DNA of 64,000 nt from Vicugna vicugna (lineage: Eukaryota). The stretch covers positions 1,614,001-1,678,000 of the forward strand of contig MU058153.1 in the NCBI GenBank assembly GCA_013265495.1. The letters run 5' to 3'. This document shows, in pieces, positions 1,189 through 61,720 of the stretch (positions are counted from its first letter, which is position 1; each line of letters starts with the position of its first letter). A program made the translations under genes and the position numbers. Under the pieces are notes generated by a model. It was not told the DNA's origin. It searched no databases and worked only from the letters and a program-made list of their open reading frames with translations.

Positions 1189-1460
1189 AGACTCATGGAC
1201 AGAGAATACAGACTTGTGGTTACCAGGGGGGTAGAGGGTGGGAAGGGATAGACTGGGATTTCAAAATTGTAGAATAGATAAACAAGATTACACTGTATAG
1301 CACAGGGAAATATACACAAAATGTTATGATAAGTCACAGAGAAAAAAATGTGACAATGAGTGTGTATATGTCTATGAATGACTGAAAAATTGTGCTGAAC
1401 ACTGGAATTTGACACAACATTGTAAGATGATTATAAATCAATAAAAAATGTTAAAAAAAA
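1..1460 (+). mobile_element. Young LINE-1 (camelid-type), 3' end of ORF2 plus 3' UTR and A-tail
   Basis: ORF2 end, G-rich 3' UTR tract (gggggggtagagggtggg), AATAAA and A-rich tail at ~1440-1460. Near-identical to the minus-strand copy at 11145-11760. Confidence 0.95.
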
Positions 1461-11144: not shown

Positions 11145-11760
11145 TTTTTTTTTTTTACATTTTTATTGATTCATAATCATTTTACAGTGTTGTGTCAAAT
11201 TCCAGTGTTCAGTACAATTTTTCAGTCATACATGGACATATACACACTCATTGTCACATTTTTTTCTCTGTGATTTATCATAACATTTTGTGTATATTTC
11301 CCTGTGCTATACAGTGTAATCTTGTTTATCTGTTCTACAATTTTGAAATCCCAGTCTATCCCTTCCCACCCTCTACCCCGCCCCCCACCCCAGTAACCGC
11401 AAGTCTGTATTCTCTGTCCATGAGTCCATTTCTGTCCTGTATTTATGCTTTGTTTTTGTTTGTTTGTTTGTTTTTGTTTTTTAGATTCCACATATGAGCG
11501 ATCTCATATGGTATTTTTCTTTCTCTTTCTGGCTTACTTCACTTAGAATGACATTCTCTAGGAGCATCCATGTTGCTGCAAATGGCATTATGTTGTCGGT
11601 TTTTATGGCTGAGTAGTATTCCATTGTATAAATATACCACATCTTCTTTATCCAGTCACCTGTTGATGGACATTTAGGTTGTTTCCATGTTTTGGCTATT
11701 GTAAATAGTGCTGCTATGAACATTGGGGTGCAGGTGTCGTCCTGAAGTAGATTTCCTTCT
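11145..11760 (-). mobile_element. Young 5'-truncated LINE-1 with perfect 17-bp TSD
   Basis: Poly-T at the left end. TSD cagggcatgtgattctt at 11128-11144 and 11761-11777, target TT|AAGA on the minus strand. Corresponds to positions ~909-1460 of the first L1. Confidence 0.97.
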
Positions 11761-11874: not shown

Positions 11875-12002
11875 GTTTGTTCATTTGTTTTTGGTGGGAG
11901 AGGTAATTAGTTTTTTTTTTCCTTTAACTGAGGTACTGGGGATTGAACCCAGGACCTCGAGCATGCCAAGCACATGCTCCACCACTGAGCTATACCCTCC
12001 CC
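11875..12002 (-). mobile_element. tRNA-derived SINE (camelid Vic-1-like)
   Basis: Reverse complement reads ggggagggtatagctcagtggtggagc...ggtcctgggttcaatccccagtacctc (A and B boxes) followed by an aactaattacctc tail. Flanking atttaagtttt direct repeat. Confidence 0.9.
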
Positions 12003-13454: not shown

Positions 13455-13660
13455 AAATACTAACTAATATATACAAAATAGATACATAAAAAATTTATAC
13501 TGTATAGTACAGGGAACTATAGTCAATATCTTGTAGTAACTTGGGGTGAAAAAGAGTATGAAAACAAATACATGATGTTCCTGTATGACTGAAGCATTGT
13601 GCTGTACCCTAGAAGTTGACACAACATTGTAAACTGACTGTATTTCAATAAAATATATAT
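13455..13660 (+). mobile_element. LINE-1 3' UTR end (camelid-type)
   Basis: ctgtatagtacagggaactatagtcaatatcttgtagtaac...gacacaacattgtaaactgactgtatttcaataaaa. Confidence 0.85.
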
Positions 13661-16944: not shown

Positions 16945-17205
16945 GCCACACGCTAGGAGATGAGAATGTCCCGCAGTCAACATCCAACAAGGAAGTGGGG
17001 ACCTCAGTCCTCCAACTTTAAGGAACTGAATGCAGCCAATAATCTGGATGAGTTTAGAAGCAGATCCCTCCTTACAGCCTACAGATAAGAATCTAGTCAT
17101 ACGGACATCTTCAGCTTTAGCCCTGTGAGATGCTCATCTGGGTAGCCATCCTAGCGCACTCAGACTTCTGACCTACAGAGCTGTGGTTTAATAAAAGGAC
17201 TGTTT
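16945..17205 (+). mobile_element. MaLR LTR fragment (MLT1D/E-like)
   Basis: caaggaagtggggacctcagtcct..aaggaactgaatgcagccaa...gacttctgacctacagagctgtg..aataaa. Confidence 0.75.
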
Positions 17206-17277
17206 CCTTTCGTTCATGTCCTTACTTTTTTTTTAACACAGTCTATGTTTGTCTGTTTCTTGCCATCATTGACACTT

Positions 17278-17892
17278 TAAAAATTTTTTTTTATTAAAAT
17301 ACAGTCAGTTTACAATGTTATGTCAATTTCTGGTATATAGAACAATATTTCAGTCATACAGGAACATATATATATATATATTCATTGTCATATTCTTTTT
17401 CACCATAAGTTACTACAAGATATTGAATATAGTTCCCTGTGCTATACAGTATGAACTTGTTTATCCATCTCCAGCAGCCAGTCCCGGCTTCTCTTTGCTG
17501 GCTCGTGTCTAGGGCTGAGGATCGCAGGGACCCCCGTGTCAGTTTCCCTTAGTTCTGTCTGCCAAGTGGTTGCCACTTTCTCCTCCAAGCCTCTGAAGCT
17601 TCTCTTCCGTCCCCGCTGTCCTCTTGACTGAAGAGCTAGCATCCCAGCGTGAGGGCGCCTTTCTTCCTGTGCTTCTCCCTCCCTGCAGGACTAGTCCTGC
17701 ACCGATTTTTTCTTCTTTCTTTTTTTTCTTACCAGATTTTGTGAGAATCCTTCTGTATTTTGAAGTGAGAGACACTCTGGCAGAGTTCAGTAGGTGCTCT
17801 GTGCGATCAGTAGGTCTGTAGATGTAATTCTTGCTGTACTTGTGGGACAGGGTGAGCTGTGAGTCTCTCCACTCTGCCATCTTGGCTCTCTC
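17278..17892 (-). mobile_element. Internally deleted LINE-1 derivative: 5' UTR (~420 bp) fused directly to the last ~190 bp of the 3' UTR, TSD-flanked
   Basis: The minus strand starts gagagagccaagatggcagagtggagagac (L1 5' end), joins 3' UTR ataaacaagttcatactgtatagcacaggg at ~17468 and ends AATAAA-A-tail. TSD ccatcattgacactt (17263-17277) / ccatcattgtctctt (17893-17907). Confidence 0.85.
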
Positions 17893-17909
17893 CCATCATT
17901 GTCTCTTGT

Positions 17910-18327
17910 GGCAACTTCCCAGTTATTTCAGGAAGTCAATGTATGTATCTTATGTCTGCTCAAGACCAAGTTCAGGCAGCCACCCCTACTTTCTTCCTTT
18001 TCTGCTTCCCTGCTTCCAGCTCCTCCTGTGAAGTTCACTGCCTTTACATTGAATGTGAGCCATTAAGTTGCTTCCACAGCGTGAATCCTTCTGGGCATCT
18101 CTGCAGCCTCGGCTCAGTATCACAGTAGCCACTTATCATGGCTGATCTGGTCTGTACCAGCCACTGCCCAGTTTCCAGAGCTCTCAGGGTCCCAGAGGGG
18201 CGCTGGGTCATATGGGGTCTTGGGCTGCAAGTACATTGCCTTCTAGGCAGCTGTGGAAGCATCTTCCTTACCCTGAGCAGCATTCTGTTACCTGGCACTA
18301 ACGCTACTTTGTCCCAGTCTGTTATAA
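17910..18327 (-). mobile_element. Possible old ERVL-type LTR
   Basis: GC-richer block with the general look of old ERVL LTRs; family not securely recognised. Confidence 0.3.
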
Positions 18328-31915: not shown

Positions 31916-32467
31916 TGGGGAAAATTATGGACACTGAGATTAAAATCCCAGACATATGCGTAGAGCAGGAAAGAGCATATAGATTTAGACCCACAGGTTA
32001 TATGGGACACACAGTTTATGAGAAATCATAATTTTCCTTCCTGAGAGTTTACGGTAAAAATCTTTCAATATTTGGTCCAGTTATTTCATTTTATTTTCCA
32101 GGTTACACCAAGGCAGTTCATCTATTGTTGGTCTATATATTGGACTTGGATATTATTTCAATAAAGTGTTTTGCTGCTAAAATATTTTAAGAACCACTGT
32201 TTTAAAGCAAACACATTTCAAGATGCAAATGGTTATTATTATCCCTTGCTTTTTTCCTTTAACTGCTTCACATTCTTCTTCTTTTTTCTCTTTAACAGAT
32301 TCGATTCTTAATCTTAAAAAGCAACCTCAAAATTACCTGGCTATGAAGGCTGTTTCTCAGCTCCTCCTGAGTCTTCTTAGCTTCAGGCTAGGTTGTGATC
32401 CAAGGCCATCTTCCAAGTTCACTTTGGGCACGTTACTCAAGGTCATTATTTCTATGACCACCATTTG

Positions 32468-32581
32468 TTTTCTTCTGGGGGAAGGCAATTAGGGTTTATT
32501 TGTTAATAGAGGACCTGGGGATTGAACCCAGGACCTTGGGCATGCTGAGCATGCCCTCTACCACTGAGCTATACCCATCCC
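32468..32581 (-). mobile_element. tRNA-derived SINE (Vic-1-like)
   Basis: ggggattgaacccaggacc...ctctaccactgagctataccc; flanking ccatttg repeat. Confidence 0.88.
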
Positions 32582-41799: not shown

Positions 41800-42631
41800 G
41801 TAAGGTGTCACTAAAAGATTGCAGGCTTTGAGATCAATGAACCTGAACTTAGTTTCCCCAAATACTAGCATTGTGATATTACAACATACAAGAAAGGATG
41901 GTACCAGTGGTTTTTACATGGCCTTTGGAAACAGCCAGCCAGTTTCTCTTTCTGACTTTTTGTGACCTTAACCAAATTATTTAACTTCTCTGAGTCTCAG
42001 GCGTTTTTCACTTGTACAGAGGTGGTATTGATATCATTTCCCATCCTAGACAATTGCAAGGCGAAGATCAAGGATAAGGATGAAGTTCATCATACCATTT
42101 GTCTAAGTGTTTAAGGCAAGTGAATATACGGTTAAATATAATGTGCTCCTTACTCTTACCTTGACATTATCATGGAAATCCCAATTTAAAATTTCATAAT
42201 CTTGAATTCCACAAAGTTTTGAACATGGAAATCTGGTGCTTGGTGTGCAGGTTCCAGCCTGTAGCTCATGCGTTCTTCTGTTCCCACTCCCAGCTCACTC
42301 TCTCACCGTAAGATGACCTCAGACACAAAGCATGTGAAAGCCTGAGCCCACCCAAGTTCCATCTACAGCCCCCCAAACAACTGTCCCCTGAGCACCCCCT
42401 GGCCTAAGGGTGCGTCTACCAGGGTCATAATCTGTTTGCAGGAAATGGGCCTTCAAGTGGTGCTCCTGCAGGCGCTGAAAGTTTGCTTGAAAAGAAGTTG
42501 AGAAATTCCATAATCTCAGGTACCCAGAGCATTACCTATGTTAGAAGATAAACACAGGCGTATTAAACATTTTAAGAGTTTATTTGAAAAAAATCAACTT
42601 AAATTGGACAGCATTCGACCTAGCAGATGGA

Positions 42632-42726
42632 GGGGGAAGGGCATAGCTCCTGGTAGAGTGTGTACTTAGCATGCACGAGGTCCTGGGTTCAATCCCTCGT
42701 ACCTCTATTTAAAAAATATTTAAAAA
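42632..42726 (+). mobile_element. tRNA-derived SINE (Vic-1-like)
   Basis: gggggaagggcatagctc..ggtagagtg..gaggtcctgggttcaatccc. TSD tcgacctagcagatgga (42615-42631) / tcaacctaacaaatgga (42727-42743). Confidence 0.88.
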
Positions 42727-43016
42727 TCAACCTAACAAATGGAAAGGAGTGCCAAGGAGCTGTACAAAATAAATAGAAGTTAGCAGAAGGGAGTGGGAAT
42801 AAGGAAGGTACATTGGCAAAATGCAGCTTGGTTATTGCAAACTTACTTTCTTTTAGGGAATGGAATGGGTCTATGGCAGAATACCTAATGAGTGCTGATC
42901 AGGTGAGTCCTGATTGACTAGTTATTTAAATTTCCATTTCTGGAAGAACTGAAGCTATAAGTTAATTCTTGTTTTGGTGTTATGGAGCTTAGTATAAGCA
43001 ACTCCATTTTGACCCT

Positions 43017-43420
<404 letters not shown>

Positions 43421-44299
43421 AACATCCAGGATTGAAAAAATATCTCTGGGTTCTAATACGCATGCTCTTTTTGGATCCTTGGACTCTTTTCCCATAAGAG
43501 TGGCATGGTAGGAGTAAGGCCACAGGGCCAGAGTGGAGCCTTGTTAATTGAGCGACTCTTAATAACTAAGGGGATTGTGAGTCTTAAATGAAATAACAAA
43601 AAGTTCTCAGTTCTGGGCTGGAATCATGGTAAATACTTTATAGGCTGGGGATTCAGGGTTCATGTGTATCAATAGTAGAATAATAAAAAATTTATCATCC
43701 TCAAAAAGATAATAACATATTTATAGCTTCCAACTCAGGGCCTGGTATTTAGAAAGACATTAAAAGATGTTTAAGCCACTTATTCTTCATAGGGCAATAA
43801 AAGGTTAGCTGATACCAGTGCCAAGGTCATTGGTGCACTCAGATTCCTAAGTTCTCAAAGCATCTCCTTCAGCTCTGGTGTCATGCCAAGCTCTGGATAT
43901 ATTTGAAGACAATTTCTCCTTTTTGAGAATATATATTTTTGGGACGGACAGATAGTTTTCCACTGAGAACAAGGGAGAAGACATCACTGTATTTACATCA
44001 ACACCAAGCTATCATGAAATTGCTCATCTTTTGATTTTAATTTCATGCCCCTACAGAGGTGCACTCATAAGAAAACTAGTTTATTCCACTTATCAAAATG
44101 AGATGAATGGGTGAGATTTAACAGCAGCAGCTTGATGAATGAATGAGCATATTTTTGTGACATTAACACAGTTAATATTCACTCTCTCTCCCCATGATCT
44201 CCTACGTCTCCCGATGGCTTGTGGCATAAGAAGAGGCATATTTTAATCCTTAAACAATTGTAAAAATAAATAAAATAAATGCATTTGAAGTACATAGGA

Positions 44300-55096: not shown

Positions 55097-55691
55097 TATT
55101 GTCGGCGATTATGTTCTTGTCTTTTCGCAGAAAGAATTCAGAGATGAGAGACGAAGGTTAAGAAAGTAAAGCGAGGACTTATTAAGGGATGGAGAGAACA
55201 CTCTCAAGAGGAGGGCGGGCAGGCTCAGGTGAGCAGCTGCGCTGAGCTTCTTTGGCAAGTTGGTTACATAGGGTGTAAAAATGAATGGGTAGAATATTCA
55301 CTAGGGAGGGAAGGGTTTGGGGTTGTATTGCCTGATTTCCATCCCAGCTCTACTTTCCCAAGGGGAAGAAGGATTTTTGTCTTTCTTTAGTCTGGATCAG
55401 AAGTGTCATGGCCCCAGTGCATGATGGGTACTTCTAACCAGCAAGGCTAATTTTACTGAAATCAGGGTACAATGAGCAAAATGTTAGATTTGGACACCAG
55501 AGATTCCTATCTTTCCCCACCTTTCTTTGCCAGCCTCCAGGACATTTGTCACCACAAAATGTGTGATCTCAGATCAGTCCTGAGGTTCCTGCTTTTTTCT
55601 GTCTGCACAAGGACCTCTGATGTATAGGTTCCTGTCATTTGGCCATTGCCCCCTTTCTCTGATCACATCTAGCTATCTGCTTGCTCTAACA
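55097..55691 (-). mobile_element. ERV1-type solo LTR (copy A)
   Basis: Reverse complement of the LTR at 56061-56706; terminal ctctaaca; 4-bp TSD gtgt/gttt. Confidence 0.9.
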
Positions 55692-56060: not shown

Positions 56061-56706
56061 TGTTAGAGCCGGCAGACAGCTAGATATGAGTAGAGAAAGG
56101 GGGACACAGGCCAAATGGCAGGAATTGGGCCAAAAGGAGGGGCACTGGCCAAATGCAGGAAACCCTTCATCATGGAAACACCAGGGTTCCCTGGGCAGAG
56201 GAAGAAAAGTAGGAATCTCTGGGCCATTAAGAAGTCGTATATTTGGGGGTGACAAGTGGCTTGGAGGCCAGTAAAAAGAAAGGTGGGGAAAAGCAGGAAT
56301 CTCAGGCATCCAAATGTAACCTTTTGCTCGTTATGCCCTCATTTCAATAAAATTAGCCTTGTAGATTACAAGCATCAATCATGCAATGAGGCCGTGACAC
56401 TTCCTATCCAGCTAAATAAGGGCAAAGATCCCTCCCTCCCTTCAGGGAGATGGAGTTGGGATGAAAATCAGGGACTATGATGCCAAACCCTTCCTTCCCC
56501 AATGAATATTCCACCCATTCATTTTTACACCCTATGTAACCGACTTGCCAAAGAAACTCAAGGCAGCCGCTCACCTGAGCCTGCCCGCTCTCCCCTTGAG
56601 AGTGTACTCTTCATCCCTTCATAAATCCTCACTTTACTTTCTTAACCTACGCGTCTCATCTCTGAATTCTTTCTGCGACAGGATAAGAACCTAGTCACCA
56701 GCAACA
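56061..56706 (+). mobile_element. ERV1-type solo LTR (copy B)
   Basis: tgttagagcc...gcaaca termini; 4-bp TSD ctgt/ctgc; poly(A)-signal-like cataaa at ~56620. Confidence 0.9.
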
Positions 56707-61388: not shown

Positions 61389-61720
61389 AAAAAAGAAAAA
61401 GACAAATGAACTTATTTATAAAACAGAAACAGACTCACAGACCTAGAAAATAAACTTATGGTTACCAGAGGGGGAAGGGGTGGGAAGATATAAACTGGGA
61501 CTTCGAGATTTGCAGATACTGACTGGTATATGTAAAATAGATAAACAAGTTGATACCAGCACAGGGAACAATATTCGATATCTGTAGTAGCTTACAGTGA
61601 AAAAGAATATGAAAATTAATATATGTATATTCATGTATGACTGAAGCAATGTGCTGTGCACCAGAAACTGACACAACATTGTAAACTGACTATACTTCAA
61701 TTACAAAAAAAAAAAAAAGA
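61389..61720 (+). mobile_element. LINE-1 3' UTR end (camelid-type) with poly-A
   Basis: gacaaatgaacttattta...ggttaccagagggggaaggggtggga...gtaaactgactatacttcaatt followed by an A-tail; TT|AAAA target. Confidence 0.9.

Follow-up and report, generated by a model that had tools for sequence, protein, structure and literature searches.

We identified, on the minus strand of a 64,000-nucleotide stretch of vicuña DNA (hereafter the window), a 615-bp mini-L1 (17892..17278) in which nucleotides 1–427 of an L1 5′UTR are joined to the end of an L1 3′UTR. One aged 15-bp target-site duplication (TSD) encloses both L1 ends, and the element consists of UTR sequence throughout its 615 bp, with neither ORF1 nor ORF2. 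With moderate confidence, we interpret this copy as a retrotransposed, ORF-less spliced L1 RNA of the SpIRE kind, derived from a rare long isoform and later shortened by a small deletion. The existence of a class of ORF-less L1s formed by a 5′UTR-to-3′UTR splice is well supported, within which the window copy probably represents a rare long isoform and not the type member of a separate family.

The front of the element (17892–17466, 427 nt) has a GC content of 52%, in contrast to 24% over the 188-nt tail (17465–17278). The motif CCAAGATGGC stands near the 5′ end (Table 1) and includes what we take to be a YY1 site. The front is single copy within the window; contigs paralogous to the 5′UTR were present in all four sequencing runs compared (4/4), and a by-eye comparison found it colinear from its first base with the pig L1B1–B5 5′UTR consensus given in the supplement of PMC6501411. 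The tail is 82% identical to 13480–13653 and 80% identical to 61537–61710, with four weaker copies elsewhere in the window, and after the AATAAA it closes with nine A followed by TTTTTA. An earlier, sequence-only reading of this DNA had the element start at the L1 5′ terminus and continue through ~420 bp of GC-rich 5′UTR into ~190 bp of the 3′UTR type seen at 13455 and 61389, and these measurements agree with it on each count. The AATAAA that it reported is in place, and the A-tail is present but short; the junction, which it had put at ~17468, is placed instead at 17467/17465.

Table 1. Positions in the window of the parts of the mini-L1 and of the reference sites used to interpret it (a slash marks a cut or joint)
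Feature	Position	Strand	Basis
L1 5′UTR nt 1–427, from the L1 5′ terminus	17466..17892	-	Colinearity with pig L1B1–B5 by eye; paralogous contigs in 4/4 runs; protein matches to the 113-codon frame
CCAAGATGGC motif near the 5′ end	17876..17885	-	Sole exact match in the window; also opens the pig L1B consensus
Splice donor at nt 160, CTG/GTAAGA	17727..17735	-	Intact and unused in the window copy; cut in 5/5 readable joints of short relatives
5′UTR/tail junction	17465..17467	-	Base 17466 fits neither side; paralog alignment stops at 17467 and 17465
Last ~188 nt of the 3′UTR, from the recurrent acceptor AG/ATAAAC	17278..17465	-	AATAAA at 17295–17290; short, decayed A-tail
TSD, 5′ copy, 15 bp	17893..17907	-	13/15 against the 3′ copy; 12/15 with the X14 and X18 letters
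TSD, 3′ copy	17263..17277	-	13/15 against the 5′ copy
Unspliced reference tail, TACTAAC and acceptor AG	13458..13484	+	Motif scan
Second unspliced reference tail, TACTGAC variant and acceptor AG	61517..61543	+	Motif scan

A 113-codon frame (17539–17880, minus strand) starts with the ATG found in the 5′ motif. Fifteen predicted proteins match it with E values up to 0.001, and several share its start codon (14 of the 15 matches were retrieved). The matches are probably spurious protein calls on GC-rich L1 5′UTRs; the frame may be a sense upstream ORF of the L1 family, a reading that we do not favor.

A 15-bp TSD with two mismatches around the whole unit was also part of the sequence-only reading, and we recovered it: a match of 13/15 has a chance of ~2e-4 over 150 placements, and one other 15-mer alone among 127,970 equals it. 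Contigs from two of the sequencing runs, X14 and X18, differ at two letters within the 5′ TSD copy, which lowers the agreement with the window's 3′ copy to 12/15 (chance ~3e-3). These letters make the 5′ copy (17893–17907) resemble the adjoining L1 5′ start motif, possibly by chance. The nick site, 5′-CTCTT/GT, is a relaxed pyrimidine/purine match only to the TTTT/A type. Taken as a set, the complete 5′ end, the AATAAA, the A-tail and the TSD agree with target-primed reverse transcription (TPRT) of a whole RNA. The X14 and X18 contigs show 3 differences and 8 differences plus 3 gap letters, respectively, in 231 nt across the 5′ insertion point, the only one that they bridge, with 34 letters inside the element; because they bridge it, the insertion is older than a split of ~3.5% divergence. 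The listed paralog pieces differ from the window copy by 10–19%, and the copy is an old, probably inert fossil.

To characterize related loci, we compared contigs of four public sequencing runs with window positions 17190–18089 at 80% likeness. Among the 15 joints listed (of 59), 5 tie the tail to the 5′UTR; three with unknown letters between were left out of the exact count. Joint letters were listed for 12 of the 15 rows, and 5 of these give readable tail-to-5′UTR letters, in four distinct sequences from runs X1, X14 and X18. In all five (reverse-complemented by eye), the head stops at 5′UTR nt 160 and runs straight into the start of the tail. The heads end in CTG, CCG or CCA, with G160 joining the base after AG, and the variation among CCG, CTG and CCA probably reflects the decay of a CpG in old copies that are separate from one another. 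The nt 160 donor scores 7/9 and was the sole GT site reaching at least 6/9 in a donor scan of the 427-nt 5′ part. At the resumption point, unspliced tails read AAAATAG/ATAAAC, with the branch A of a TACTAAC 19 nt before, and the heptamer lies upstream of the acceptor AG in the tail loose-end consensus of all four runs. Within the window, the heptamer before the acceptor AG, exact or as TACTGAC, has two matches; the mean in shuffled sequence was 0.14, and none of 100 shuffles reached two. The nt-160 relatives are exact GT–AG junctions that leave out both ORFs, and since 5/5 readable joints in four distinct sequences are cut exactly at the GT donor and the AG, splicing out both ORFs appears to be recurrent in the lineage.

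These joints also speak to the proposal that the AG at the resumption point is a splice acceptor lacking a pyrimidine tract. The acceptor looks real and is recurrently used, and the tract is indeed weak, offset by the TACTAAC branch point; the suggestion of retrotransposed spliced L1s is strengthened by the several other loci that carry 5′UTR-to-3′UTR joints. One short-form junction contig has a depth of 61 in X1 and 54 in X14, whereas the single pieces listed have 6–16. The difference points to several near-identical short-form copies, with the proviso that depth is not equal to copy number. Depth over 17733–17892 (minus strand) is several-fold above that of the region past the donor in 4/4 runs; in X1, the summed contig depth is ~5–14 thousand over 5′UTR nt 1–160 and 0.3–3 thousand downstream. 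The excess would fit either many short elements or a more conserved first 160 nt, and summed depth, again not being copy number, was not counted as evidence. We discounted a joint at 17503–17642, which we attribute to misplacement across two 5′UTR stretches of similar sequence.

Two other L1 tails in the window, at 1255–1290 (plus strand) and 11315–11350 (minus strand), are without a ~21-nt segment bearing the branch point before the acceptor AG. Their mutual identity is 87% over 614 bp, and for that reason they are probably younger. The loss of the branch point in these tails may represent an escape from the ORF-removing splice.

At the window copy's own junction, the two sides differ in clarity. 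Tail paralogs cease aligning at 17465. On the 5′ side, 7 of the 32 pieces listed (of 93,189) reach to within 4 nt of the break; the alignment of five stops exactly at 17467, leaving an overhang of 11–146 unaligned letters, and the other two pieces simply end there. Given these stops at 17465 and 17467, the tail starts at the recurrent acceptor within 0–2 nt; and as five paralogous contigs match no further than 17467, the next base in the relatives is not the window's G. We estimate the chance of a random break falling within 2 nt of the acceptor at well under 1%, if the break could have occurred at any point of the final 1 kb or a longer stretch. The 5′ side of the break has no GT in the relatives represented by the pig L1B consensus and the peptides. 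The nearest candidate donor, GAG/GTCAGT, stands ~12 nt past the homologous break in the pig L1B1–B5 consensus sequences, with no GT before it, and peptides P0003, P0005, P0007 and P0013, which are spurious products of 5′UTR paralogs, read across the break in two frames and are compatible with the pig-type continuation. An equally good reading of the junction is a 2-nt microhomology (AT) plus one substitution. With the donor side unclean in this way, the junction is therefore either a second-donor splice with one substitution and ~10 nt lost later or a microhomology join that coincides with the acceptor.

Among the 32 listed pieces (of 93,189), none spans the window's junction; the window's own locus is itself absent across the junction from that listing, which makes the count weak evidence of rarity. 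None of the five contigs reaching the break with an overhang continues into the tail. Of the GT…AG boundaries proposed for the missing segment, the AG side stands, as a recurrent acceptor within 0–2 nt, and the GT side may lie ~12 nt past the present break. A spliced-RNA origin fares alike, favored by the use of the acceptor and the spliced L1s at other loci and disfavored by the lack of a GT cut at the copy's own break. The proposed search for the junction at further loci yielded none among the 32 listed pieces, but the same tail start recurs with nt-160 heads. A SINE-like family carrying the window's junction, also suggested at the outset, is not borne out: all readable recurrent junctions use nt 160, and the overhanging contigs lead elsewhere than into the tail.

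Under the splicing interpretation, the internal Pol II promoter of a full-length L1 would have driven its transcription, and the spliceosome would have removed both ORFs as one intron of several kilobases, from a donor in the 5′UTR to an acceptor ~190 nt from the 3′ end, the latter defined by the TACTAAC branch point and the AG 19 nt later. Polyadenylation at the L1 signal would then give an RNA of ~0.6 kb. Because such an RNA encodes no L1 protein, ORF2p from another L1 RNA would be needed in trans, and its copying of the spliced RNA by TPRT would have left the 15-bp TSD. The common product would come from the nt 160 donor and the window copy from a rarer, longer isoform, for which we infer most likely a second donor ~12 nt beyond the present break and a later small deletion of ~10 nt. 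Human L1, with two 5′UTR donors at 97 and 290, offers a precedent for alternative donors (PMC2896524); the pig consensus L1s have lengths of 5.8–8.8 kb. Against the splicing interpretation, the ~10-nt deletion and one substitution must be assumed, the strong nt 160 donor is skipped in the window copy, and the continuation past the break is known from the pig consensus and peptides alone, not from a full-length L1 of the host species.

The clearest competitor dispenses with splicing. In an internal deletion during insertion, the reverse transcriptase would copy the last ~190 nt, jump via 1–2 nt of microhomology to nt ~426, on either the original L1 RNA or a different one, and complete the copy at the 5′ end. 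This would explain a break with no GT, the 2-nt microhomology needs just one substitution, and one TSD with a complete 5′ end is consistent with a single event; template switching by the L1 reverse transcriptase is, moreover, a route proposed for chimeras in PMC13174262. The jump is nevertheless improbable in our assessment, as its 3′ break must land by chance on the acceptor of 5/5 readable recurrent junctions. The coincidence of the 3′ break with the recurrent acceptor counts equally against a full-length L1 having been inserted and having later lost several kilobases by end-joining at microhomology. The age of the copy (10–19% from the listed paralog pieces) would have left enough time for such a loss, and the junction seems to have no counterpart in the pieces listed, yet we regard a loss of this kind as decidedly improbable.

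We gave a comparably low weight to a self-amplifying, nonautonomous L1 derivative with the window's exact junction, in which a master with the 427-nt promoter would produce a Pol II transcript mobilized in trans in the manner of a SINE. The mini-L1 retains both features needed in cis, the 5′ end and the A-tail; the depth of the short-form junction contig (61 in X1 and 54 in X14 vs. 6–16, though no copy number) is in its favor; and just 32 of the 93,189 pieces were listed, with even the window's own locus omitted. However, the absence of the junction from the listed pieces (0/32) and of the tail from the overhanging contigs (0/5) disagrees with it, and the multicopy signal is that of the nt-160 form, not of the window form. 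Starting from the splice itself, one can conceive of a wider scheme: an ORF-less, Pol II-driven, SINE-like camelid L1 family founded by splicing, with masters of its own that re-amplify it and with two or more isoforms, whose heads measure 160 nt and ~430 nt. Later L1s would have evaded the splice through deletion of the branch point, an outcome seen in the two more similar tails, near 1.3 kb and 11.3 kb. We consider this scheme conceivable but unlikely.

The literature searched contained no description of this mini-L1 or of a 5′UTR-to-3′UTR L1 splice class; Repbase, Dfam, Belancio 2006 and the PMC8605555 supplements were outside the scope of the search and may already contain one. Two acceptor-region motifs had no match in the pig L1 consensus sequences. 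The plasmid collection gave no match and the viral contigs 0 junction-motif and 0 tail-motif matches; these blanks are uninformative because mammalian sequence is scarce or absent in the DNA collections. Two matches to the head–gap–tail pattern in metagenome contigs were chance bacterial sequence, and one match in genome contigs was likewise due to chance. At the protein level, a search with the junction frame gave three candidates, none of which scored. The tail frame returned ordinary L1 tails or tail-only frames in 32/32 cases, and a start derived from the 5′UTR in 0/32, a count of little weight as these proteins belong to another subfamily. A short-protein search, confined to 30–34 aa, gave nothing.

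Other repeats in the window include three short tRNA-derived copies at 11929–11999 (minus strand), ~32462–32581 (minus) and ~42627–42718 (plus), the first an Rfam tRNA match of 48.8 bits. They resemble a simple SINE, for which vic-1 is no more than a tentative name; in the account of PMC8605555, the lineage has few SINEs besides MIRs. The window also contains an inverted pair (55104–55652 and 56139–56699) with 79% identity over ~560 bp and ~490 bp apart, and a long compound purine–pyrimidine microsatellite at ~42900–43500 that appears as low-complexity frames.

The interest of the mini-L1 rests on the class and not on the single window copy. A recurrent 5′UTR-to-3′UTR splice, if true, would offer a direct path by which an autonomous L1 gives rise to a short noncoding parasite. 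In the human SpIRE classes, described as dead ends, ORF2 is retained, and the 2018 Repbase survey, in the parts covered here, names no ORF-less bipartite family of the L1 clade. Genomes alone could then tell whether cis preference still allows spliced L1s to give rise to families, and whether L1 evolution tends to eliminate the splice signals that gut it.

Among known systems, the mini-L1 is set apart from SINEs as defined by SINEBase, whose Pol III head comes from tRNA, 7SL or 5S RNA, by its L1 5′UTR head; no Rfam match fell within 17278–17892, the sole match in the window being that at 11929–11999. It shares with vic-1, as presented in PMC3531059, the status of a short nonautonomous camelid element, but vic-1 is a simple SINE. 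HAL1 is similarly a nonautonomous L1 derivative without ORF2 (PMC5786205, PMC13756887), but by these accounts it retains ORF1, and the mini-L1 has neither ORF. The spliced human L1 RNAs, including SpORF2, resemble it in joining the two alternative 5′UTR donors (97 and 290) to distant acceptors; they differ in being reported as RNAs and in the position of the acceptors (1837 and 1920), which preserves ORF2 (PMC2896524).

The human SpIREs come closer. As reported by Larson et al. 2018 (PMC5860796), they comprise 131 copies with acceptors at 620–974, in the 5′UTR or ORF1, keep ORF2 and are termed dead ends. The likeness lies in the full 5′ end, the removal of a segment between a 5′UTR donor and a downstream acceptor, the A-tail and the TSD, and in several splice classes having one common splice site. 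Here, however, the acceptor is in the 3′UTR, both ORFs are gone, mobilization would be wholly in trans, and the common site is the acceptor, not the donor. The window copy has the L1 5′ start and the TPRT hallmarks (A-tail and TSD), as well as an acceptor AG with a branch point on the 3′ side, with 0–2 nt of ambiguity from base 17466. A GT donor on the 5′ side is seen in the nt-160 relatives (5/5 readable rows); for the window copy, the relatives, as represented by the pig consensus, have no GT at the break and a candidate ~12 nt further. A repeated junction is represented by four distinct nt-160 sequences, known from joints without flanks, and the window junction by 0/32 listed pieces. With the acceptor in place but the donor side without a GT at the break, we do not firmly class the window copy as a SpIRE.

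In its overall design, the mini-L1 matches the bipartite ORF-less LINEs, or SIDEs, such as RIME, NARTc, Bov-A, RTESINE, R2 SIDE and Persaeus (PMC5786205, PMC6740152). The Repbase survey of Kojima 2018 gives RTE, Ingi, Vingi and R2 as their only sources and internal deletion as their origin (PMC5786205), and a CR1 case was added later (PMC6740152). As in these elements, the parent's 5′ and 3′ ends alone are present, without an ORF, and the transcript is presumably made by Pol II. Self-amplification, the defining trait of such families, is a candidate property here, and the mini-L1 differs from them in its L1-clade parent and in the GT–AG form of the junction that recurs in its nt-160 relatives.
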